A program made the translations under genes and the position numbers. The notes below the pieces were generated by a model that worked only from the letters and a program-made list of their open reading frames with translations, had not been told where the DNA came from and did not search any database. A DNA stretch of 64,000 nucleotides, taken from sequence record NC_135729.1; one strand, 5' to 3'. This DNA comes from a phage. The stretch's first letter is position 1. The number at the start of each line of letters is the position of its first letter. Below are positions 9,244 to 54,744 of the stretch, piece by piece.

Positions 9244-9320
9244 TGGTCTCCACGGAGTGATTCGAACACTCGACCTCCTGATCCCAAATCAGGCGCTCTA
9301 CCAAGCTGAGCTACGCGGAG
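9244..9320 (-). tRNA. tRNA-Pro (anticodon UGG)
   Basis: Cloverleaf read by eye on minus strand; anticodon loop UUUGGGA; T-loop TTCGAAT; C1:G72 pair; CCA encoded. Confidence 0.8.
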
Positions 9321-9331
9321 TATCTACTATT

Positions 9332-9406
9332 TGGTGGCCCTGGGTGGAATTGAACCACCGTCTGGCGATTATGAGTCGCTTGCTTGAACCTTCCAGCTAC
9401 AGGGCC
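9332..9406 (-). tRNA. tRNA-Met (anticodon CAU; could be Ile2/lysidine type)
   Basis: Acceptor GGCCCTG/CAGGGCC; anticodon loop CTCATAA; T-arm GGTGG-TTCAATT-CCACC; CCA encoded. Confidence 0.7.
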
Positions 9407-9407
9407 A

Positions 9408-9483
9408 TGGTGCTGATGGCAGGACTTGAACCCGCAACCTATTGATTACAAATCAATTGCACTACCAATTGTGCTACATCAGC
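9408..9483 (-). tRNA. tRNA-Thr (anticodon UGU)
   Basis: Acceptor GCTGATG/CATCAGC; D-arm GCAC-AATTGGTA-GTGC; anticodon loop TTTGTAA; CCA encoded. Confidence 0.8.
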
Positions 9484-9488
9484 AAAAA

Positions 9489-9587
9489 GGTGCTAGGCGG
9501 TGGAATCGAACCACCTATGTATTCAACGACTACCTCGTCTATTTTCAGGATTAAAAATCCTCGCCCTTGCCAAAGGGCTTACCTAGC
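9489..9587 (-). tRNA. atypical tRNA-like element (99 nt; candidate anticodon UUU)
   Basis: Canonical acceptor, D-arm, anticodon-like hairpin and T-arm (GGTGG-TTCGATT-CCACC), but about 29 nt separate anticodon stem and T-stem; ends in CC not CCA. Confidence 0.35.
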
Positions 9588-9685
9588 TCAATATGTTGAC
9601 CATGTTGCTAGTCGGCGATGACGACTGTAACATTTGATAATCCGGTTCTGCTTCCGGCTTTCGCTTAATTGCAAGGTCAACAATG

Positions 9686-9776
9686 TGGCGGAGAGTAATG
9701 GAATCGAACCATCATCGAGTCATCCTCAACGGGACGGTTTTCAAGACCGCTTGAGCACCATTGCTCCCTACCCTCC
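9686..9776 (-). tRNA. tRNA-Ser (anticodon UGA), type II
   Basis: Acceptor GGAGGGT/ACTCTCC; anticodon loop CTTGAAA; long variable arm; 91 nt; CCA encoded. Confidence 0.7.
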
Positions 9777-9891
9777 TTTATAAATTATACTGATAATGAC
9801 ACTGATTTTCGAGCAGTTAGTGACTAGTATAAACGACGATAAATATCAATGCCATTATCTGTATTATTTATGCATCTAAAAAATATAAATT

Positions 9892-9978
9892 TGGTGGGGA
9901 GTGGTGGAGTCGAACCACCCGAGTCGCAATGACAATAGATTTACAGTCTACACCGCTACCTCTACGGGATAACTCCCC
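9892..9978 (-). tRNA. tRNA-Tyr (anticodon GUA), type II
   Basis: Acceptor GGGGAGT/ACTCCCC; anticodon loop CTGTAAA; T-arm GGTGG-TTCGACT-CCACC; 87 nt; CCA encoded. Confidence 0.75.
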
Positions 9979-9982
9979 AATT

Positions 9983-10057
9983 TGGCACCCCGTACTGGAC
10001 TCGAACCAGTGTCAACGGCTTAGAAGGCCGCTGCTTTATCCACTAAGCTAACAGGGC
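9983..10057 (-). tRNA. tRNA-Arg (anticodon UCU)
   Basis: D-arm GCTT-AGTGGATA-AAGC; anticodon loop CTTCTAA; T-arm ACTGG-TTCGAGT-CCAGT; CCA encoded. Confidence 0.75.
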
Positions 10058-44481: not shown

Positions 44482-44763
44482 ATGAAAAAGATTAACAGTA
44501 GTGAAGTAGAGTTTAAACTTGTCGGAAAAGGCACTTACTGGGAAGTTCGTCAAAAGGTATATTTGTTCGGTCTTATTCCCTACTGGTCTAAATTCTACTG
44601 GGGAGCTAACGAGTTGGGAAGATACGCCACCAAATCAATGGCACTTATTGGTATAGCAGAGTACATTGCAGCCCGAGACAGGGTTGGAACCACTTATTAC
44701 TACACTGCTGACGATATTCGTAACAGTGTTTACGTCCCACAACCACCTGATGGAGACCGTTGA
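44482..44763 (+). CDS. hypothetical protein
   Basis: ATG after GGAGA. Confidence 0.4.
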   Translation: MKKINSSEVEFKLVGKGTYWEVRQKVYLFGLIPYWSKFYWGANELGRYATKSMALIGIAEYIAARDRVGTTYYYTADDIRNSVYVPQPPDGDR

Positions 44764-44987
44764 TGAAAGTTAAAGTTTTAGATTCAAGCTTCTATATTGG
44801 TCAGGAGCCTTTAGTAGGAAAAGTGTTTACTGCTGTCCCTAACGAAGATTACCCTGACCTTTTAAAAATAAAAGGAGCAGATCTTATTGCCGCTGGTGCA
44901 TCTCAGGAATGCTTTGACAGTCAGTGGACCTATAACTTTGCCCTAGGTGAGGATGTAGAGGTAGTGGAGGACGATCATGAAGGTTAA
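44763..44987 (+). CDS. small acidic protein, MKVK paralogue family
   Basis: MKVKVLD, KIKGADLIAAGA, C-terminal VEVVEDD. Confidence 0.45.
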   Translation: MKVKVLDSSFYIGQEPLVGKVFTAVPNEDYPDLLKIKGADLIAAGASQECFDSQWTYNFALGEDVEVVEDDHEG

Positions 44988-45231
44988 AATTCTTGATTCT
45001 AACGTCTACTTGGGACAATCCTTCCTGAATGGAAAGGTCGTTCCTGCGGTATACTTTGAAGGGTTGCCGTGGGATGATCCTGTGCGGCAACATCACAGTT
45101 ATGTAGGCCACAACGTGGTGTTTATCTTGGGATCAGACCTGATCACCGCTGGTGCACCTGAATATTATTTCGGGGAAGAGTCCTACTATGCCTTTGGGGT
45201 AGGGTCAGATGCAGATATTGTAGAGCTGTGA
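44977..45231 (+). CDS. small acidic protein, MKVK paralogue family
   Basis: MKVKILD, ILGSDLITAGA, C-terminal DIVEL. Confidence 0.45.
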   Translation: MKVKILDSNVYLGQSFLNGKVVPAVYFEGLPWDDPVRQHHSYVGHNVVFILGSDLITAGAPEYYFGEESYYAFGVGSDADIVEL

Positions 45232-45243
45232 TGGGTAACCGTT

Positions 45244-45642
45244 GTGAAAAATAAACTGTTCAAAGTTACAATGAAAATTCGCGGAGCTTGGAGCGTAAAG
45301 CAAGGGCGTATCCCAGAATTTGAGAAAGACTTCTACGTAGTCTCCACCTCGGAGGAGGCTGCATGCTGGCAGGCTGGCTATGCCTATGCAAGAACCTGGT
45401 ACGAAGGATACCAGACTGGGGGCTATGACGGAGAAATTGTCAGCAAGGGTGTAGAAGAAATTAATGTGTTGACAAGTGAAAAAGTTTTTGTTATAGTGCA
45501 TCCAGATTCCAGAGTGAAGCATTACTGGAATGCCAGAACAAAAACTTGGACACCGTTTGCAGATTCTGCTACTCCACTTTTAAACCAGAAAGCTCTTGAC
45601 TCTGCCCCAAGTTATGGGGTTGTTGAAGAAAAGCTAAACTGA
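45244..45642 (+). CDS. hypothetical protein (paralogue of 47457-47852)
   Basis: HPDSRVKHYWNARTKTWTP segment echoed by HPHSNIAYYWDVLNNEWTP in 47457-47852. Confidence 0.45.
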   Translation: MKNKLFKVTMKIRGAWSVKQGRIPEFEKDFYVVSTSEEAACWQAGYAYARTWYEGYQTGGYDGEIVSKGVEEINVLTSEKVFVIVHPDSRVKHYWNARTKTWTPFADSATPLLNQKALDSAPSYGVVEEKLN

Positions 45643-45659
45643 AACAGTGAGGTGTCACC

Positions 45660-45950
45660 ATGATGGATTTAATTCTAAATATTGATAACGCAGGAGAGTT
45701 TAAAGACGATGGTGTAACAAGCATGGACAAACCCTGCTCTGCTAAGGTTGACTCAAAATGGACCTATAAGTTTGATGGAGAGATCTTCGCAAATGATGAG
45801 AAGGTTGTAGATGCTGCAGCCATTTTGAACGCTCTAGGTTACGACCCTGTGAATTCTTTGATCAAGGATCCTGTTGAGTTTGCGGAGTATGTTCGAAAAA
45901 TGGCAGATCTTGCTGTAGATATTTTAAAAACTATCGACAACAAGCTATAA
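45660..45950 (+). CDS. hypothetical acidic protein
   Basis: 96-aa ORF. Confidence 0.4.
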   Translation: MMDLILNIDNAGEFKDDGVTSMDKPCSAKVDSKWTYKFDGEIFANDEKVVDAAAILNALGYDPVNSLIKDPVEFAEYVRKMADLAVDILKTIDNKL

Positions 45951-45955
45951 AACTG

Positions 45956-45984
45956 TTGACACAATGCTTCAGCTATAGTATTAT
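45956..45984 (+). promoter_or_regulatory. sigma70-like promoter with 5' leader stem-loop
   Basis: TTGACA - 17 nt - TATTAT, then hairpin AAAGAGAGA..TCTCTCTT at 45991-46018. Confidence 0.55.
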
Positions 45985-46036
45985 TGTTTTCAAAGAGAGA
46001 TGGTTGTTACTCTCTCTTCCTTAAAAGGAGCACGTT

Positions 46037-46354
46037 ATGCAAATTGAAATCACTGGCAACGTAGAAATCACTGAAGGTATGGTGTCTTTCATTTCCCACA
46101 AAATGTCTAAGCTGGAGCGTTTGCACCCATCTGCCAACTATGCACGTGTGAGTGTAAAAGTTGAAAATGATCACCAGGAAGTCATGGCGTTCATTTTTGA
46201 CACTTCCGGAAAAGAAGTTATTGCCAAAGCTAAAGGTAGTGACGCTTACGAGGCAACTGACCGTATGGTAGATGTTGCAGCACGTCAGCTGGCTAAATGC
46301 GGTGGAAAGAAAGGTAAGGGGAAAGGCAAAGTAAAGATTGACTTTGGAGAATGA
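46037..46354 (+). CDS. hpf: ribosome hibernation promoting factor homologue (HPF/RaiA family)
   Basis: MQIEITGNVEITEGM...KLERL...VKVEN...AKGSDAYEATDRMVDVAARQL colinear with recalled E. coli HPF; Lys/Gly-rich tail. Confidence 0.6.
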   Translation: MQIEITGNVEITEGMVSFISHKMSKLERLHPSANYARVSVKVENDHQEVMAFIFDTSGKEVIAKAKGSDAYEATDRMVDVAARQLAKCGGKKGKGKGKVKIDFGE

Positions 46355-46491
46355 GGTGCTACAATGGGCGTGATTAAGAAATTAGTCCCAAATGTAGAGA
46401 TTGCATGCTTTGAAATTATGTTTGCAATCGCAGTTGTAGTTAATGTGTTAGGTTACGGCTATTAATATCAAATAATTGAGGAGACCTCTAA

Positions 46492-46761
46492 ATGAAAATT
46501 AAATTATTCAAAACTGAGCTGGCAGACAAAAACTGTGGACTGGTTGAAGGCATGATCGTTGAAGCACAACCAGTGGACTACATGAAGGTAGTTCGTGATG
46601 CACTGGGTGAAGGCTTTGATCTGATGGAGCCAGCTCTGCGAGAAGATGTTATCGAGATGGCTAAAAAGCACACACCTGAAGGCTTGGTGGTGTTTGTTGC
46701 ACCGGGTAACGGAGAAGAGTTGATTGTAACTCCTGATGTGTATGAGATTGTAGAAGAGTAA
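46492..46761 (+). CDS. small acidic protein (MKIK subfamily)
   Basis: MKIKLF, IVEAQP, C-terminal YEIVEE. Confidence 0.45.
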   Translation: MKIKLFKTELADKNCGLVEGMIVEAQPVDYMKVVRDALGEGFDLMEPALREDVIEMAKKHTPEGLVVFVAPGNGEELIVTPDVYEIVEE

Positions 46762-46856
46762 TCCTGCTTGGATTAGCATACTTCTCTCAATAAAAAGAAA
46801 AGTTTGTAATTATTTGTGGGAAAGGAATCCCCATCTCTTGCCAGAGGTGATACTAT

Positions 46857-47120
46857 ATGATTGTTTATTTTAAAACTTCAGGTGGATACCCTGATTCTCA
46901 AAGCTTGATCGGAAAAACGTGCACAGCATACTCACCTTTTGATGAGGAGGTAAGCGATATCCTACGAGATATGTATCGGATTGATCCCCAAGAAGCTTTT
47001 GATCAAAACCTTGTATTTGTCAAGGGCTCAGACATGAAGTCTTTGGGAGCATTCCCTGAAGCAGATGATGATGCTGTTTATTCGTTCATGACTCCTTTTG
47101 AAGCTATGGTTGTTGGGTGA
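46857..47120 (+). CDS. small acidic protein, MKVK paralogue family
   Basis: FVKGSDMKSLGA; 87 aa. Confidence 0.4.
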   Translation: MIVYFKTSGGYPDSQSLIGKTCTAYSPFDEEVSDILRDMYRIDPQEAFDQNLVFVKGSDMKSLGAFPEADDDAVYSFMTPFEAMVVG

Positions 47121-47124
47121 GAAT

Positions 47125-47457
47125 ATGAAAGTACGATTTATTGGTGAAACAATTCCTGTGCATCTCCGGTCGCCTGAAGATTCTGCAGATCTTGCATCTC
47201 AGAAGGCGAGAGGTTATGATAAGAAAGTAATCTCAACCGATGTAGAGCTTGAGGCTACCAGTCTACCTGACCCTGCTGCATTCTTTAATCATTATGGGTA
47301 CTATTTCAGCAATCTGATGAATATAGGGGAGCTTGTGTTTATTAGTGGTGGAGAAATTGTTAGCAAGCTTGGCGGCGATCCGGATGTCTTTCATGAAACC
47401 TGTCCTTTTGCATTTGTGGTTGGTTCAGATGTGGAAGTTATTGAGGAGGTGCGGTAA
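47125..47457 (+). CDS. small acidic protein, MKVK paralogue family
   Basis: MKVRFIGE, C-terminal VGSDVEVIEE; ATG after GGGTGA. Confidence 0.45.
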   Translation: MKVRFIGETIPVHLRSPEDSADLASQKARGYDKKVISTDVELEATSLPDPAAFFNHYGYYFSNLMNIGELVFISGGEIVSKLGGDPDVFHETCPFAFVVGSDVEVIEEVR

Positions 47458-47852
47458 TGGTAAGCCTATACCGTGTTGAGTATAGCTCAGATACTGTGTA
47501 CAACGTAAGAAGTAAAGATCGCAGCGACAGAGTGCAAGAAATGTATGTTCTTGCCGACAGTCCGTTATCTGCAGCGTTCAAGGCAGGGGCTCTTGCATCT
47601 CGTTGGAAATTTGAAGGCGGATCTTTCTATGAAGAAACCCTTGAAGATTCTGTTGTTATTTCTTCTGTAGAGGTTTCAGATGACTACGAAGGGAAAAAGT
47701 TCGTAATGCGGCACCCACACAGCAACATTGCGTACTACTGGGATGTTCTGAACAACGAGTGGACCCCAGATCTTCAGAAGGCTACTGTGCTAACACCGTT
47801 TTTGGCAGATAAGTTCCCACCAGAAGGTAATTTATCCGCATTGTTTCAGTGA
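47457..47852 (+). CDS. hypothetical protein (paralogue of 45244-45642)
   Basis: Shared HPxS..YYW....WTP segment. Confidence 0.45.
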   Translation: MVSLYRVEYSSDTVYNVRSKDRSDRVQEMYVLADSPLSAAFKAGALASRWKFEGGSFYEETLEDSVVISSVEVSDDYEGKKFVMRHPHSNIAYYWDVLNNEWTPDLQKATVLTPFLADKFPPEGNLSALFQ

Positions 47853-47932
47853 TTTTCTTGCACACAGGTATTGACAACGCCAACCCTGTGTGCAATAATA
47901 CACCCATCTTAACAAAACAGGAGATTTTAATA

Positions 47933-48181
47933 ATGAAAATTAAACTTAAGAATATTGATGAGGCCGCTTTAGAAGGTATCGATTTCGATTTCCCATTTAA
48001 AAACGGGGATATCATTGAAGCACAAATTCCTACCCGAGAAATGGTAAATAGTTTTGCAGAAGATGGTGCGGCAACAATGATTATGCTAATTATGGACGGC
48101 ACTCTCTTCATTGGGGAAGAGGACGATCCAATCATGATTCCTGGTCATTTTTATGAATTAGTTGACGAAGAGGTGCTGTAA
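47933..48181 (+). CDS. small acidic protein (MKIK subfamily)
   Basis: MKIKLKNID, IIEAQIP, C-terminal YELVDEE; ATG after ACAGGAGA. Confidence 0.45.
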   Translation: MKIKLKNIDEAALEGIDFDFPFKNGDIIEAQIPTREMVNSFAEDGAATMIMLIMDGTLFIGEEDDPIMIPGHFYELVDEEVL

Positions 48182-48532
48182 ATGAAAGTAGAAATTACCG
48201 GTTTTGATGTGAATGTGGTTCCGGAAGATATTTTAGCTAAACTTCCGGAAGGTTTTGGTAACGGCGTTGTGGTGGATGCTGTTCCTCCTACCAAAGACAT
48301 TCTGCTGCAGTATGGTGTAGCAGAGGAAGATGTCGATAAAGTTCTTACAATGATGGCAATCGATCGTGTTGTCGTTGTTAAGGGTCTCGATAATTTTGAG
48401 AGTGATCCCCTGATTATTCGTGGAGATGACTACAAAATCATCGATAATGAAGGCCAAGAGTTCTATGAACCTTGTGCAGAAGATATTCTTAACTTATTAC
48501 TGGAAGCAGGCACCGAAGAGGAGGACGAATAA
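48182..48532 (+). CDS. small acidic protein
   Basis: 116-aa ORF; acidic C-terminus. Confidence 0.4.
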   Translation: MKVEITGFDVNVVPEDILAKLPEGFGNGVVVDAVPPTKDILLQYGVAEEDVDKVLTMMAIDRVVVVKGLDNFESDPLIIRGDDYKIIDNEGQEFYEPCAEDILNLLLEAGTEEEDE

Positions 48533-48861
48533 TGAAGATTGACCCGTTACTGAAGGCTCGTGCAGAAAAAGCGTACACCATTAAGCTGACCAACCTGGTT
48601 CCTACTTGTCATCCGGATGTAGGTTGGCCCGAAGGTTTGGTGGAGGGAACTGTAACAGCTGCATACCTTCCTAACATCAAATACCTTATGGAAATCTTAG
48701 AGATGGATGAGGAAACTGCAGAACAGTTCCAGTTGGATATGAAACAGAGTGGAACTCTGGTTATTCACGGGTGGTATAATACTAAAGATGCAGAAGACCC
48801 TCTGGTAACTTCTAATCTGGCATATGAAATCTTAGGGCCTTTGAACCTGGAGGAAGACTAA
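48532..48861 (+). CDS. small acidic protein
   Basis: 109-aa ORF; ATGA overlap. Confidence 0.4.
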   Translation: MKIDPLLKARAEKAYTIKLTNLVPTCHPDVGWPEGLVEGTVTAAYLPNIKYLMEILEMDEETAEQFQLDMKQSGTLVIHGWYNTKDAEDPLVTSNLAYEILGPLNLEED

Positions 48862-49148
48862 TGAAAGATCTGGTTAAGATTAAGATTAAAGATACCAATG
48901 GGGAGCTCAGCCATTTTGGAATTAATGATGGTGACGAGCTGATCGCACACCTGCCTACCAAGGAGGTTGTAAGCAAAGCAGTTGCCGGAGAAGAAGCTGC
49001 AATGCAGGCTGCAGGTGTGGATGAAAACTATGTAGCTATGTGCATGTGCCGAGATCAGGTTGTTCTGTATAAAGCGTATCGACCAAACGGAGCCACGGAG
49101 TGGCTTGTATTCCGACCCGAAGGATATGAAATCTTAGAGGCAATATGA
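48861..49148 (+). CDS. small acidic protein (MKIK subfamily-like)
   Basis: C-terminal YEILEAI. Confidence 0.4.
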   Translation: MKDLVKIKIKDTNGELSHFGINDGDELIAHLPTKEVVSKAVAGEEAAMQAAGVDENYVAMCMCRDQVVLYKAYRPNGATEWLVFRPEGYEILEAI

Positions 49149-51848: not shown

Positions 51849-52023
51849 CACACAATTAGCTACCCGGCTAAAGTGCTGGGAGCACCTATAACACATCTTT
51901 CAACTAAATTTCCTACCACCACAATCACTTACCTCCCACACATGACTGTTTGCTTGTTTAGTGAGCAGTCATGCCTTGACATTCTTGCCTATCCTGATAA
52001 AATTAAGTTCTTCTCTTTTCTTT

Positions 52024-52050
52024 TACCGAGTAATTCGGGTTTTCTGTTCT
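52024..52050 (+). terminator. putative terminator closing the plus-strand block
   Basis: CCGAG-taat-TCGGG followed by TTTTCTGTTCTCTT. Confidence 0.35.
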
Positions 52051-53381
52051 CTTCGGTTTGAAGGGGTATAGAGATACACCTGAGTGAACAGGGTGAACAA
52101 CCGAACCATTAGCTATGGCATTAGCATGGCGAAGCGGACGGGTGACGAAAGAGGGGCCGGAGGACACCAGTCACTGCCATATGATATATGGGTGATAACC
52201 TGAAGAGTCTGAATAAGTGTTTAAGTACCAGTCAGAGGAAAAGGTGAATGGTAGCCGAAGGGGGGAGGGGGGTTTCTTGTATCTTTAATTTGTATATTAT
52301 GTATACACTTGTAAACCAATCTAATCTGAATCTGTTTACCACGCAAAGCGGATAGAGACAAATATTGCCTATTAAACTTGAATTATTTATAGAAAATACC
52401 ACAACACCCCTTAAGTCTTTGATTTTACACACAAATCCTACAGATATTCAACCTCCATATTTAACATACTTGTAACATATTCCATACTCTACCTGTCTGA
52501 TCAACTCACCCAACTACATCCTCCATATTTCCCCTGTCTGTACTACCCCTGCCCCGCCTGGAGTCCCGTCATATCTGGCTTTCCAGCAAATATCCCACCC
52601 ACAAATATCATTGCCTGAAGAGGGTTTCCTCCCATAATACATGCCTTACCTGAAGAGCGCTTCATATACCCCGTAAATTTTTTAATTGACACCCTCCCCG
52701 CCGCCGGAGGGGGTTGGCTTTTCCCACACAGACCTGAAGAGCCAGCCAGAAATATCTGAACAGGTCCAGTTATACCACGATTTTGACCTGACCGACAGGA
52801 GTGCTGCCAGGCGGACGAAATGGGAATACTTCTCATTCTTATAACAATTCTCAAATATCGAGGCAGTGAGGCAAATTAATAGGTGAGGCCGTTCACATAG
52901 TGGCACAACATTTGCAATCTATTTTGTGTGGGGAATGAGAATACATATCATTGTGAGAACCATTATCATTACGGGCAATTTAACATAATACCCATTATGC
53001 GCACCACTGGCGATCCATACAGGGATTGATAACATGAGTTACTGTTTACACACATAACAATTATATTTCTTACTATTTGTGTGGGATATAGTTAGCAGCC
53101 GATAGATTAGATATTGACCTGTGGACTTCCAACAGTCTAGACGTCTAAGCGCCCACACAACAAGGCTTATACATACACAACTGAATGTAAACAGGGCCGC
53201 AAAAATGCTACCATACCAGCTTGTAAATTTTTCATACAGCACTTGACAAAGAGGAGAAAAACTTGTCTGACACTTTAGACACCTTTGACACACTGGGCAT
53301 ACTAAACACTGGATATAATAACAATTGTTACTATTGCATGCCTCACTGTTCACGTATAGACTATTTGCTCAAAAATTATAA

Positions 53382-53669
53382 GCCATGCCATTCGTTTGCA
53401 TGATAACGATTAGCAAGTTAATAATCTTTCACTGGCTATGCCAGGTGACCTTTGGTCACCCCTTCGGGTGTTTCTATGACATAATATAAAAGCAGGGCAA
53501 CTATTAGAAGATCTATAGTTGCCTTGCTTGTTATGTCATGATTAACTAAATACAAGGCAACTATGATCTGATTAATAGTTTGCAGGCAAACTATCACGGG
53601 GGTGATGGTTACTGCTTTTATATTATGTCGCGACTCCGTCGCGCCATGCCATTCGTTTGCATAGTTGCC
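53382..53669. repeat. iteron / inverted-repeat array (GGCAACTAT x6, 18-bp inverted repeat, 20-bp direct repeat)
   Basis: GGCAACTAT at 53496, 53556, 53585 (GGCAAACTAT) and inverted at 53515, 53575, 53661; inverted repeat 53478-53495 / 53612-53629; direct repeat GCCATGCCATTCGTTTGCAT at 53382 and 53643. Confidence 0.7.
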
Positions 53670-54278
53670 TTATTGTTACAGGTAAAATAATCACATTATT
53701 AATTATTTCTTATCTTTCTCTTAGTCATCTAATGATTCCAGTCAGTATAGTAATGTACAGTAGACATTAGACGACTAAAGATTTCTCTGTTTATGATAAC
53801 TCATCGTGATAATTTCGGACTGTTTACGAAAAATGTTGACACCTGAGCTGATTTATGTTATGCAGTTTACACGAATAATTATTTTATGCAGGTATTGACT
53901 ATTCCGTTATTCTGTGGTTGGAATAAATACTTTGCAGGCTATAGAATGGCGTGCGTACGTGAATTCTTAGATCTGGCGGCTATAGTTATACTCGATTTTT
54001 CGCGTAGGACACGCTTTCTATGTTGTGTAAGTGTATGACTTATAAAGATTTTTAGTTGTTGACAAGATATTGGAGATGTGCATCAGGTTAAAATTTGTGC
54101 AATAGCGGCATTACGTGCACTTTTGGGAGAGAAAACGGGTAAAAATGGCCCTGCTACCACACAGTGAAAGATTATGCAATAGTTATTTTATATGTATATT
54201 TGTACAGTGTGTGGGATTAATGGCTAGTCAATTATTCCACTTGCCGGGTAGGGCCGTTTATGGTAGGAGAAGAGCAGA

Positions 54279-54305
54279 CAAAAAGAAAGGGGCCTTTAAG
54301 CCCCT
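54279..54305 (-). terminator. rho-independent terminator closing the minus-strand block
   Basis: AGGGGCC-tttaa-GCCCCT stem followed on minus strand by TTTCTTTTT. Confidence 0.55.
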
Positions 54306-54324
54306 TGATAATTCAGTTAAGAAA

Positions 54325-54744
54325 TTATAATGATTCGTATATTTCAAAAATCCGATTTGCCAGGTCGTTACGGTAGCGGAATTTTTCATCACGTTTGATC
54401 ATCAGATCTTTAAAGCCGTATTCTTTAAGCACTTCATTAACTTTATGGCGGCACACCTTCATATTGTCCTGAGCGTCACCAATAAACCTGTTGCTATGGT
54501 GCATGGCTTTAATTTCTTCTTCCAGGACCAGGGCAACTATGCGGACCGGATCAAGCTGATAGGCGGTAACATCAATGCGGCATTGTAAACGGCTTTTTAC
54601 GTCTGCCACCGGATATACTGCAACCTCTTCCCCGTCAACATTGACAATAATTAGTTTACCATCGATTTCGAATCCTTTCGCCGCCGGACCGTGACAAAAA
54701 GCGTTATCAAAGCTATATGCCGGATTATCAGATTTAATGTTCAT
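54325..54744 (-). CDS. hypothetical protein
   Basis: 139-aa ORF; AAGAGG Shine-Dalgarno; own promoter at 54794-54822. Confidence 0.45.
   Translation of the reverse strand: MNIKSDNPAYSFDNAFCHGPAAKGFEIDGKLIIVNVDGEEVAVYPVADVKSRLQCRIDVTAYQLDPVRIVALVLEEEIKAMHHSNRFIGDAQDNMKVCRHKVNEVLKEYGFKDLMIKRDEKFRYRNDLANRIFEIYESL

Follow-up and report, generated by a model that had tools for sequence, protein, structure and literature searches.

The open reading frame at positions 46037–46354 (+ strand, ATG to TGA) of the window, which is the whole 64,000-nucleotide stretch of phage DNA analyzed here (sequence record NC_135729.1), encodes a 105-aa protein belonging to the Ribosomal_S30AE/HPF-RaiA family of ribosome hibernation factors. 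By sequence comparison it is HPF-like, closer to HPF than to RaiA. Strong purifying selection acts on the gene, and the protein lacks several basic residues typical of its relatives and carries a basic tail found only in its own phage clade. Most likely the protein occupies the 30S decoding channel in a weakened, salt-labile manner and is produced at an early stage of infection. As to what it does there, we lean toward a divergent short-type HPF that parks idle ribosomes loosely and transiently and/or blocks the site used by host HPF or RaiA.

Relation to Previously Described Phage Genes

The source phage is an rV5-like Vequintavirus, and the gene is already known: it carries an annotation in the rV5 record of 2006 and was studied in 2019. 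In GenBank DQ832317 it is ORF144 with promoter P144, and the product, entered as a "sigma 54 modulation factor", was later renamed "ribosome hibernation factor". The copy in the window (105 codons plus TGA) is the homologue of rV5 ORF144/ABI79209 and is the same gene, with 99% amino acid identity, the same position and the same promoter P144. Differences from rV5 are purely allelic (T56 in the window protein, N56 in rV5), and the EduardKellenberger, Gotham, and EI-SP-GF alleles are 100% identical to it at the amino acid level.

Mizuno et al. (2019; PMC6375957) expressed the rV5 protein in Escherichia coli from an arabinose-driven construct and found it in the crude extract, but recovered no peptides from 70S or 100S ribosomes; 100S levels were unchanged and 70S profiles were normal. 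Cells were harvested at an OD600 of 1 and ribosomes were pelleted through a 0.5 M NH4Cl cushion (PMC6375957). The same study proposed an anti-hibernation role for the phage protein and listed GAP32 beside rV5 (PMC6375957), and the rV5-type gene was mentioned again by Mathieu et al. (2020). We found no functional follow-up to Mizuno et al. in the literature, and phages go unmentioned in a preprint of 2025 on how hibernation factors evolved. The original prediction had named ribosome association as a check on its proposal, and such association is so far unsupported because no rV5 protein was found on salt-washed 70S or 100S ribosomes in that experiment. We do not consider this negative result decisive. 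According to work of the Wada laboratory, such salt washes reportedly strip cellular hibernation factors as well; our literature search turned up no outright statement that HPF or RaiA of E. coli is removed by high-salt washing.

Family Membership and Fold

Profile searches and structure prediction both bear out the HPF/RaiA-family membership claimed from the sequence alone. The protein scores 48.2 bits on the profile HMM of Pfam Ribosomal_S30AE (PF02482), where the cut-off is 23.7 (E 1.9e-12), and 46.7 bits on TIGR00741, where it is 40.9, in both cases above the curated threshold. It falls below the 125-bit cut-off of NF007780, the equivalog for short HPF (E. coli YhbH), with 55 bits, and below the cut-off of 158 of NF007654, the RaiA/YfiA equivalog, with 18.7 bits. 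The AlphaFold2 model of the 105-aa protein (pLDDT 88.5) superposes on Vibrio cholerae and E. coli HPF with 1.0–1.6 Å over about 90 residues. Its core, encoded by 46037–46303 (+), has a pLDDT mostly of 93–98 and an rmsd of 1.0–1.6 Å to 4hei, 2rql, and 6h4n_x. HPF structures are also the top Foldseek matches, namely 4hei (rmsd 1.0 Å, 90 residues), 2rql, and the ribosome-bound 6h4n_x, and all PDB matches from rank 1 to 36 are HPF, RaiA, pY, or related factors, with double-stranded RNA-binding domains following as weak matches at ranks 37–48. The protein carries MQIEITGNVEITE, AKGSDAYEATDRMVDVAARQLAK, and the tail CGGKKGKGKGKVKIDFGE, and the N-terminus, C-terminal helix, and Lys/Gly-rich tail quoted in the original prediction are all present in the 105-aa frame.

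Within the claimed HPF/RaiA family the likeness is to HPF more than to RaiA, to which identity is 25%, and several conserved rRNA-contact residues are missing. Among solved structures, E. coli HPF chains are the closest in sequence (E of about 1e-11, vs 0.17 for RaiA), and identity to E. coli HPF is 41% (43–44% by tblastn). Taking the E. coli and V. cholerae short HPFs together (YhbH; 2rql, 4hei, and 6h4n chain x), identity is 41–44% and the size is similar. Among named cellular proteins, the HPF of the gammaproteobacterium Thorsellia is the closest relative. RaiA of E. coli (YfiA, protein Y) shares the family and fold, and both proteins extend C-terminally past helix 2, but the RaiA tail taken as a whole is net acidic, with an acidic run at its end, and the Lys/Gly-rich phage tail is net basic. 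The RefSeq label "RaiA" was rejected, given the NF007654 score (18.7 vs 158) and the unrelated tail sequence.

Other assignments were also set aside. Long HPFs of Firmicutes, Thermus, and others (Staphylococcus aureus, Bacillus subtilis, Thermus thermophilus) have an N-terminal domain homologous to the phage protein and of the same fold, but at 105 aa the phage protein has only a 17-residue disordered tail past helix 2 in place of a dimerization domain of roughly 60–90 aa. Lacking that C-terminal domain, it cannot by itself dimerize ribosomes in that way. No profile supports the "ATP-dependent protease La" annotation found in some records. The "sigma 54 modulation" label of many records was rejected as a historical name, which goes back to the location of the cellular gene within the rpoN operon rather than to any known activity. 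In cells, hpf lies in that operon and is induced in stationary phase, in contrast to the phage-encoded gene with its sigma70 promoter. HPF-like proteins of the same fold and family are also encoded by the Cronobacter and jumbo coliphages GAP32 (K4F6Q6) and PBECO4 (L7TII8); at 17–24% identity and with no Lys/Gly tail, these are independent acquisitions.

Residues Contacting rRNA and the C-Terminal Tail

Retained and lost contacts were judged against the cryo-EM contact lists of bioRxiv 10.1101/2025.10.07.680626 and the S. aureus mutagenesis of PMC4889938. In E. coli HPF, helices 1 and 2 carry a conserved track of basic residues, K26, K80, R83, K87, K89, and K91, that touches 16S rRNA (bioRxiv 10.1101/2025.10.07.680626). 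The phage protein retains the basic contacts K22, K25, R28, R83, K87, and K91, together with D75, and it has M1, G7, K22, K25, E43, D69, Y71, D75, R83, Q84, K87, and K91 in common with the short HPFs of E. coli and V. cholerae. Three basic residues are lost: where E. coli HPF has R17, K80, and K89, the phage protein has V, V, and G. There are also a one-residue deletion past G7 and the replacements of Y30 by L, E51 by M, and T53 by F.

These losses are unusual for the family. Position 16, V in the phage protein, is R or K in 86% of relatives; position 80, also V, is basic in 92%; and position 89, here G, is basic in 97%. Contacts with 16S rRNA have been described for positions 80 and 89 (bioRxiv 10.1101/2025.10.07.680626). 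None of 150 family representatives is nonbasic at all three positions, as the phage clade is. Of the five basic sites on helix 2 the phage protein keeps three and the homologue in a divergent phage clade two, whereas 131 of the 150 relatives have four or five. Three helix-2 basic sites combined with a unique triple loss make a genuine loss of ribosome binding possible. Abolishing binding by S. aureus HPF required mutating both helices at once, and K84/R87 of that protein are critical for dimerization (PMC4889938).

The tail itself (residues 89–105, GGKKGKGKGKVKIDFGE, encoded by 46301–46351, +) is predicted to be disordered, with a pLDDT of about 50, and takes the place of the helical KHKDKLKQH end of E. 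coli HPF. It has a net charge of +4 and a pI of 10. A comparable K/G tail is absent from all other short family representatives, making the tail specific to the phage clade.

Promoter, Leader, and Genomic Context

Downstream of the nucleotide-metabolism genes comes a long run of small genes whose function is unknown, and the hpf-like gene is one of them. A Pfam scan of the ten adjoining ORFs, aimed at partners in translation such as an RMF-like protein, gave no matches, a PHROG scan of the same ten returned unknown-function PHROGs only, and no RMF homologue was found among them.

Upstream, a sigma70-type promoter at 45956–45984 (+) comprises a −35 hexamer TTGACA (45956–45961), a 17-nt spacer, and a −10 hexamer TATTAT (45979–45984), matching 11 of 12 consensus positions. 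It lies in an 86-nt intergenic gap, the upstream ORF ending at 45950, and is the same site as the P144 annotated in the rV5 record DQ832317. Promoter-like sites at the scanner's loose threshold are not enriched in the region (14 vs 13.1 expected), but sites matching at least 11 of 12 positions are enriched across the window (18 found, whereas simulated first-order Markov sequences gave 1.8 ± 1.3). The strand of these strong sites tracks the local gene strand. The −35 element and its flank, AAACTGTTGACACA, also occur upstream of the 64%-identical homologue in the divergent phage clade. With near-consensus hexamers, 17-nt spacing, an intergenic location, and conservation in relatives, the site has the properties of a sigma70 phage promoter. 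The original prediction had called it dedicated to this gene, and that part stands less well. We found no terminator-like site directly upstream or downstream, which makes both read-through from upstream and co-transcription of downstream genes likely, so the promoter is not strictly dedicated to the hpf-like gene.

The predicted leader contains, near its 5' end, a stem-loop at 45994–46017 (+) with an AGAGAGA/UCUCUCU stem and a loop of about 10 nt. Its existence, which had also been claimed, is confirmed, though taken alone the hairpin is weak evidence. The stem is retained in eight Vequintavirus alleles, in which the loop varies. One stem pair covaries, being G-C in four alleles and A-U in two, and two alleles show an A·C mismatch. 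The AGAGAGA/TCTCTCT form is shared with JLBYU08 and 241Ecol014PP, whereas rV5 has AGAGGG/CCCTCT. Folding energy alone is not significant: the 56-nt leader folds with −12.8 kcal/mol (z = −1.77), and 14 of 200 shuffled sequences were equally stable or better. The hairpin is missing in the divergent phage clade, and an Rfam scan of the 45–56 kb interval at gathering threshold found no RNA family at the leader or its surroundings. It is possibly an mRNA-stabilizing 5' hairpin. A Shine-Dalgarno sequence, AAGGAG, can be read from the sequence at 46025–46030 (+), 6 nt before the ATG, and AAAAGGA at this ribosome-binding site is kept in eight of eight aligned Vequintavirus alleles. Transcriptome, transcription-start, or expression-timing data for rV5-like phages were not found in the literature.

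Distribution, Alleles, and Selection

The hpf-like gene is present in 117 Vequintavirus phage records, and the 64%-identical copy of the divergent clade occupies the syntenic place. A scan of IMG/VR added two further loci only. An apparent homologue in a Salmonella phage was rejected, the entry being a 691-kb bacterial contig within the phage collection that carries the host's own hpf. Cellular HPFs were reached by an exhaustive HMMER search of 1.84 billion representative proteins, in which the next-best relative beyond the phage clade scored 59.8 bits; a word-indexed protein search gave the phage clade alone.

The gene is under strong purifying selection, with a dN/dS of 0.02–0.07 in most comparisons and dS up to 0.74. 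Selection of this strength indicates that it keeps some function. Some parts of the protein nevertheless tolerate loss, as seen in length alleles of 99–106 aa. The allele of phage inoa lacks GNVEIT, an in-frame 6-aa deletion of exactly one 18-nt repeat period, and the Murica allele has a truncated tail ending in GKGKAK. Murica and V18 have GNN in place of GN. The in-frame indel alleles near the gene start coincide with two copies of a 10-bp direct repeat, GAAATCACTG, at 46046–46055 and 46064–46073 (span 46046–46073, +) within the first 13 codons.

Proposed Function and Alternatives

We propose that an ancestor of the Vequintavirus phages took the gene from a gammaproteobacterial host. It would be transcribed by host sigma70 RNA polymerase, the near-consensus promoter implying expression early in infection. 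The protein would dock on the ribosome through the retained K22, K25, R28, D75, R83, K87, and K91. Compared with cellular HPF, it probably binds less tightly and with greater sensitivity to salt. The R17, K80, and K89 equivalents are V, V, and G, the aromatic residue that stacks on A790 is Leu in the phage protein, and the equivalent of T53, which contacts m2G966, is Phe. The flexible Lys/Gly tail, which takes the place of the basic helix-2 end, probably adds a nonspecific electrostatic grip on 16S rRNA and may extend to the platform, where the tail of RaiA interferes with RMF. The net effect would likely be that ribosomes left idle after loss of host mRNA are parked and shielded transiently and reversibly, and/or that the occupied site prevents host HPF or RaiA from locking ribosomes down. 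Silencing of host ribosomes or their preservation in starved hosts, the roles originally suggested for the protein, are speculation.

Four other readings were weighed. An unlikely one is that the protein is an anti-hibernation decoy, either competing loosely with host HPF, RaiA, and RMF or blocking RMF with its tail, so that in slow-growing or stationary hosts ribosomes stay or become available for phage mRNAs and are not locked up as 100S or inactive 70S. It would account for the absence of a 100S increase on expression of the rV5 protein (Mizuno et al. 2019) and for the loss of K89 and of K80, the match of a dimerization-critical residue in S. aureus. The retention of some function under strong selection also fits, as does the C-terminal extension, since the extension of RaiA antagonizes RMF-driven dimerization (PMC13152769). 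Yet the same experiment gave no support for ribosome binding, and the phage tail has no sequence similarity to that of RaiA and varies in length, ending in GKGKAK in Murica. Moreover, a consensus sigma70 promoter suits expression in growing cells. Host hibernation factors are scarce in such cells. We give still less weight to a neofunctionalized fold, in which the HPF scaffold has been retargeted off the decoding channel, for example to another RNA or a host protein. The unique set of lost basic contacts, the clade-specific tail, the isolation of the clade in sequence space (next relative at 59.8 bits), and the negative ribosome pull-down (Mizuno et al. 2019) all point this way, and the HPF fold resembles double-stranded RNA-binding domains, as the weak Foldseek matches indicate. 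There is also a precedent in S. aureus HPF, which binds the protein YwlG as well; PMC9522360 reports for an HPF a second partner outside the ribosome. Against it, the phage protein preserves most of the residues that are invariant in the family, among them the rRNA contacts R83, K87, K91, D75, and K22; the nearest structures are all ribosome-bound HPFs; and the neighboring genes, all of unknown function, point to no other partner.

That the protein is an early, abundant shut-off factor broadly blocking initiation on host ribosomes as part of the take-over, in line with the silencing originally suggested, seems very improbable. HPF-family proteins do occlude the ribosomal A and P sites (bioRxiv 10.1101/2025.10.07.680626), and the gene has a strong promoter and a good Shine-Dalgarno sequence, but the phage needs the same ribosomes and the sequence gives no hint of discrimination between host and phage mRNAs. 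The weakened contact set also speaks against a tight inhibitor, as do the normal 70S profiles under arabinose-driven expression in E. coli (Mizuno et al. 2019). Least credible is a captured host gene drifting without function, its historical name being that of a sigma-54 regulator. The "sigma 54 modulation factor" annotation in many records and the existence of length alleles could be read in its favor, but drift is incompatible with a dN/dS of 0.02–0.07 where dS reaches 0.74, and 117 Vequintavirus records as well as the divergent clade retain the gene; the selection analysis effectively refutes a drifting passenger.

The preferred reading, loose and transient occupancy of the HPF/RaiA site, leaves room for a bolder proposal that we regard as tentative and rather doubtful. 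Here the protein would not promote hibernation but be an HPF re-engineered by the phage, stripped of two rRNA-contacting lysines in helix 2 and of a basic residue in helix 1 and given a Lys/Gly tail, that acts as an anti-hibernation factor or place-holder or has been retargeted to a nonribosomal partner.

Little is understood of how phages deal with the host ribosome pool, above all when cells grow slowly or starve. A phage homologue of HPF is a natural handle on the question. The present analysis adds strong selection on the gene, three lost basic positions, two of which are described rRNA contacts, and a clade-specific basic tail. Together these offer a concrete, testable reason for the negative pull-down of 2019, and the residue-level picture points to mutants and assay conditions that would separate promotion, mimicry, and antagonism of hibernation. 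If the re-engineered protein does act against hibernation, loose occupancy of the HPF/RaiA site or a block of RMF would keep ribosomes active in slow-growing hosts, where they could translate phage mRNAs.

The hpf Gene and Its Product

The hpf gene (46037–46354, + strand; ATG start, 105 codons and TGA) encodes MQIEITGNVEITEGMVSFISHKMSKLERLHPSANYARVSVKVENDHQEVMAFIFDTSGKEVIAKAKGSDAYEATDRMVDVAARQLAKCGGKKGKGKGKVKIDFGE, and on re-reading of the sequence all coordinates and peptide strings of the original prediction for this locus were correct. The product matches PF02482 (Ribosomal_S30AE) over residues 3–88, profile positions 1–83 of 88, in the Pfam profile search (E value 1.9e-12; 48.2 bits, gathering score 23.7), and NCBIfam TIGR00741 (HPF/YfiA family) at 46.7 against a cut-off of 40.9. 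Its best solved relatives are the Escherichia coli HPF chains (2rql, 4v8h, and 6h4n; E about 1e-11), and the match to the family is far above chance. An AlphaFold2 model built from an alignment of 74 family members (mean pLDDT 88.5, pTM 0.76) has the topology beta(2–7), alpha(13–29), beta(33–43), beta(46–55), beta(60–67), alpha(70–89), with residues 90–105 disordered (pLDDT about 50). All 36 Foldseek matches in the PDB at E ≤ 0.001 are HPF, RaiA, pY, or related hibernation factors, led by Vibrio cholerae HPF (4hei, rmsd 1.0 Å over 90 columns) and including ribosome-bound E. coli HPF (6h4n chain x, 1.1 Å, 42% identity) and 2rql (1.6 Å). A search of predicted viral structures matched nothing beyond the remote HPF-like proteins of two jumbo phages, GAP32 and PBECO4, and some unnamed entries. 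Profile search and structure prediction thus support the proposed family membership and an HPF fold.

The likeness had been drawn to HPF and RaiA together; by sequence the product is closer to HPF. It shares 41% identity with E. coli HPF and 25% with YfiA, the HPF sequence used agreeing with the PDB-search alignment, and tblastn gave 43–44% to HPF over 87 residues. It falls below both equivalog cut-offs, at 55 versus 125 for HPF and 18.7 versus 158 bits for RaiA, and its sequence groups it with short HPF, not RaiA.

Occurrence, Relatives, and Selection

The 2.5 kb around hpf are 96.6–97.6% identical to Escherichia phages ECML-10, JES2013, and V5 (rV5) and match 120 phage records in all, from Vequintavirus, subfamily Vequintavirinae. 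In 117 phage records the product is 98–100% identical and is named sigma 54 modulation factor, ribosome hibernation (promoting) factor, or ribosome-associated translation inhibitor RaiA; the label “ATP-dependent protease La Type I” on this 105-aa homologue (OR062525, OR062528, OR062530, MT884008–MT884011) is clearly wrong. The gene had been annotated and published before: it is ORF144 of the rV5 record DQ832317, Mizuno et al. (2019; PMC6375957) counted rV5 ABI79209 (105 aa) among phage HPFs, and Mathieu et al. (2020; PMC6969025) noted it again in five new rV5-like phages. A literature search found no functional study of the rV5 protein after 2019 and no rV5 transcriptome. Queries 45000–47500 and 1–25000 also matched 18–20 “Campylobacter phage” GenBank records (MG0656xx; UNVERIFIED, host C. 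jejuni) at 97–98% identity; these probably reflect contamination by rV5-like coliphages or mislabelling.

In sequence space the phage clade stands apart. Exhaustive HMMER searching of 1.84 billion representative proteins returned only its own cluster and a clade 64% identical to it, the next score being 59.8 bits. This divergent clade comprises phage-like contigs of 44–137 kb (L002–L005; e.g., GCA_012894635.1, contig AATLQU010000010.1) with a vequintavirus-like gene order, in which the homologue occupies the syntenic site within a similar block of small genes; the 2.5-kb segment around it had no megablast match in a collection of 50,697 phage records. One copy comes from an assembly labelled E. 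coli. The nearest named cellular relative is HPF of the gammaproteobacterium Thorsellia anophelis, and the tree of Mizuno et al. places ABI79209 among gammaproteobacterial sequences. Their description of the transfer as “relatively recent” looks too strong, since identity is only roughly 40%.

Strong purifying selection acts on hpf. Pairwise Nei–Gojobori comparison of the window allele with 11 other Vequintavirus alleles gave dN/dS of 0.00–0.07 in 10 (bulk 0.02–0.07; dS up to 0.74, dN ≤ 0.022), which excludes a decaying passenger gene, and 0.18 for the inoa allele with its 6-aa deletion. That deletion in phage inoa (MN850593) is in frame, equals one exact 18-nt repeat period, and removes GNVEIT. 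The first 13 codons carry two copies of a 10-bp direct repeat, GAAATCACTG (46046–46073), and the Murica and V18 alleles have GNN in place of GN at this spot.

Promoter, Leader, and Neighboring Genes

The upstream ORF ends at 45950, and the 86-nt gap before hpf holds, all on the + strand, promoter P144 (45956–45984; TTGACA at 45956–45961, a 17-nt spacer, TATTAT at 45979–45984), a stem-loop (45994–46017; AGAGAGA/UCUCUCU), and a Shine–Dalgarno sequence (AAGGAG, 46025–46030) 6 nt upstream of the ATG. At a loose scanner threshold promoter-like sites are not enriched around hpf (14 vs. 13.1 expected). Sites matching the consensus at 11 or more of 12 positions, P144 among them, occur 18 times in the 64-kb window, where first-order Markov simulations give 1.8 ± 1.3, and strong sites track the gene strand, plus sites lying in + regions and minus sites in − regions. 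The near-consensus promoter is conserved, its −35 element and flank AAACTGTTGACACA being kept upstream of the only 64%-identical homologue in the divergent clade, and the rV5 record annotates “Sigma70-type promoter; P144” at the same site. The rV5 genome paper (PMC3606486) predicted 33 sigma70-type promoters and placed the gene within transcription unit 82–163 and inside a block of 88 mainly small ORFs. The predicted promoter is therefore well founded, but not as a dedicated one: P144 probably heads a sub-operon and not hpf alone, since no terminator-like sequence lies between hpf and the genes before it, nor between hpf and the 46364–46465 ORF with the genes after it.

The stem of the proposed leader hairpin is present and kept in eight Vequintavirus alleles, with a loop varying in length and sequence; one pair covaries, being G-C in four alleles and A-U in two, and an A·C mismatch occurs in two alleles. 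The fold is statistically weak, however (z-score −1.77; 14 of 200 shuffles at least as stable), matches no Rfam family, and is absent from the divergent clade, where the leader is short and the homologue starts 11 nt past a GAGGG Shine–Dalgarno. In Vequintavirus the 5′ arm of the hairpin consists of this GAGGG/GAGAG, and a new Shine–Dalgarno, AAGGA(G), follows some 30 nt downstream, so the hairpin may have come about through an insertion by which the earlier ribosome-binding site is sequestered as well. Its distance from the predicted 5′ end would be no more than about 10 nt, so it may plausibly serve as a 5′ stem-loop that stabilises the mRNA.

Downstream, a conserved hydrophobic ORF of 33 codons (46364–46465, +; MGVIKKLVPNVEIACFEIMFAIAVVVNVLGYGY; rV5 ORF145, phrog_15151) begins 10 nt past the hpf stop with its own ribosome-binding site, GAGGTG. 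A promoter-like TTGACT-16-TACAAT (46338–46365) overlaps the hpf 3′ end. The small genes nearby (44760–48861, +) include two phrog_7379 paralogues (45244–45642 and 47457–47852) and several acidic products of 75–120 aa that all begin with MK[IV]K and end in YE[IL][VL][ED] (e.g., 44760–44987, 44977–45231, 46492–46761, 48182–48532, and 48861–49148, all +); neither these nor the paralogues had a Pfam match.

Elsewhere in the window, a tRNA scan found a cluster of Pro-TGG, Met-CAT, Thr-TGT, Ser-TGA, Tyr-GTA, and Arg-TCT (9244–10057, −), inside which ARAGORN placed an odd 99-nt “tRNA-???” with a four-base anticodon, atcc (9489–9587). The stretch at about 51850–54460, between + and − gene blocks, corresponds to rV5 104013–106618, called “non-coding” in the rV5 paper (PMC3606486); it holds only short mechanical ORFs, no annotated feature of phage EduardKellenberger falls in the matching region, and an Rfam scan up to 56 kb found no match there.

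Lost rRNA-Contact Residues and the C-Terminal Tail

We compared the product position by position with representatives of the family, first 72 and later 150, taking contact roles from cryo-EM lists for HPF- and YfiA-bound ribosomes (bioRxiv 10.1101/2025.10.07.680626); phage numbering equals that of E. coli from position 57 on and E. coli minus 1 before it. Residues M1, G7, K22, K25 (E. coli K26), R28, E43, D69, Y71, D75, R83, Q84, K87, and K91 are kept, R83 being the residue that in cellular HPF contacts m4C1402 (same source). Two helix-2 residues that contact 16S rRNA in cellular HPF are lost, at position 80 (K/R in 92% of the family; V in the phage, T in the divergent clade) and position 89 (K/R in 97%; G and S), together with a third basic residue at position 16 (R/K in 86%; V in both), for which the HPF contact literature describes no contact. 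The aromatic residue or His at position 29, which stacks on A790, is L, and T at position 52 (E. coli T53), which contacts m2G966, is F; position 50 (E in 78%), with no conserved contact described in that literature, is M. Every one of the 150 relatives keeps a basic residue at one or more of positions 16, 80, and 89, and 131 have K/R at four or five of five helix-2 sites, against three in the phage and two in the divergent clade. In Staphylococcus aureus HPF, K84 and R87 (equivalent to K80 and R83) are critical for dimerisation, and binding is abolished only by mutating both helices at once (PMC4889938).

Where cellular HPF has a helical basic end, KHKDKLKQH, the phage protein instead has a helix-breaking CGG and a disordered tail, GGKKGKGKGKVKIDFGE (pI 10, net +4). 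The added Lys/Gly-rich tail was thus rightly predicted, and no comparable tail occurs among the other short family members retrieved. Its length varies between alleles (proteins of 99–106 aa), and because the Murica tail stops at GKGKAK the terminal VKIDFGE is dispensable.

Possible Function

Hibernation factors occur on crude ribosomes and are not known from salt-washed ones. Basu and Yap used salt-washed ribosomes as a factor-free substrate (PMC4889938). Mizuno et al., expressing the rV5 protein in E. coli, found its peptides in crude extract and none in 70S/100S fractions, with 100S abundance unchanged; their cells were at OD600 1, and sedimentation of the ribosomes took 20 h through 0.5 M NH4Cl with 1.1 M sucrose (PMC6375957). 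Under such conditions the negative pull-down does not refute the reading that we consider somewhat probable, namely that the hpf product is a weakened, salt-sensitive occupant of the decoding channel, made early. Unmodified host RNA polymerase would transcribe hpf early, and the product would dock through its retained contacts in the tRNA/mRNA channel of vacant 30S or 70S. With three conserved basic residues and two further contacts missing, it would bind less tightly than cellular HPF and be more sensitive to salt. The tail could add non-specific electrostatic attachment and may reach towards the platform. Cellular hibernation factors are reported to shield ribosomes from nucleases (PMC8406268; 10.1101/2025.11.04.686544). 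What the phage would gain is that ribosomes idle once host mRNA disappears are reversibly parked and shielded from nucleases, and/or that host HPF or RaiA is kept out.

The loss of K80, the C-terminal extension, and the unchanged 100S level would also suit an anti-hibernation decoy, loosely occupying the same site or blocking RMF with its tail so that ribosomes stay available; the negative pull-down and a tail that varies between alleles speak against it, and this is a doubtful though serious alternative. That the HPF scaffold has been turned to another target is rather unlikely: the unique residue losses, the isolation of the clade, and the negative pull-down point that way, but R83, K87, K91, and D75 are retained. 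A global shut-off factor is distinctly unlikely, given that the phage needs the same ribosomes and that 70S profiles were normal on expression (Mizuno et al. 2019). A passenger gene or sigma-54 regulator is scarcely credible, being refuted by the selection analysis. The remaining interest of hpf lies in its function and in the pattern of lost rRNA-contact residues with a clade-specific tail, which offers a testable explanation for the published negative ribosome pull-down.
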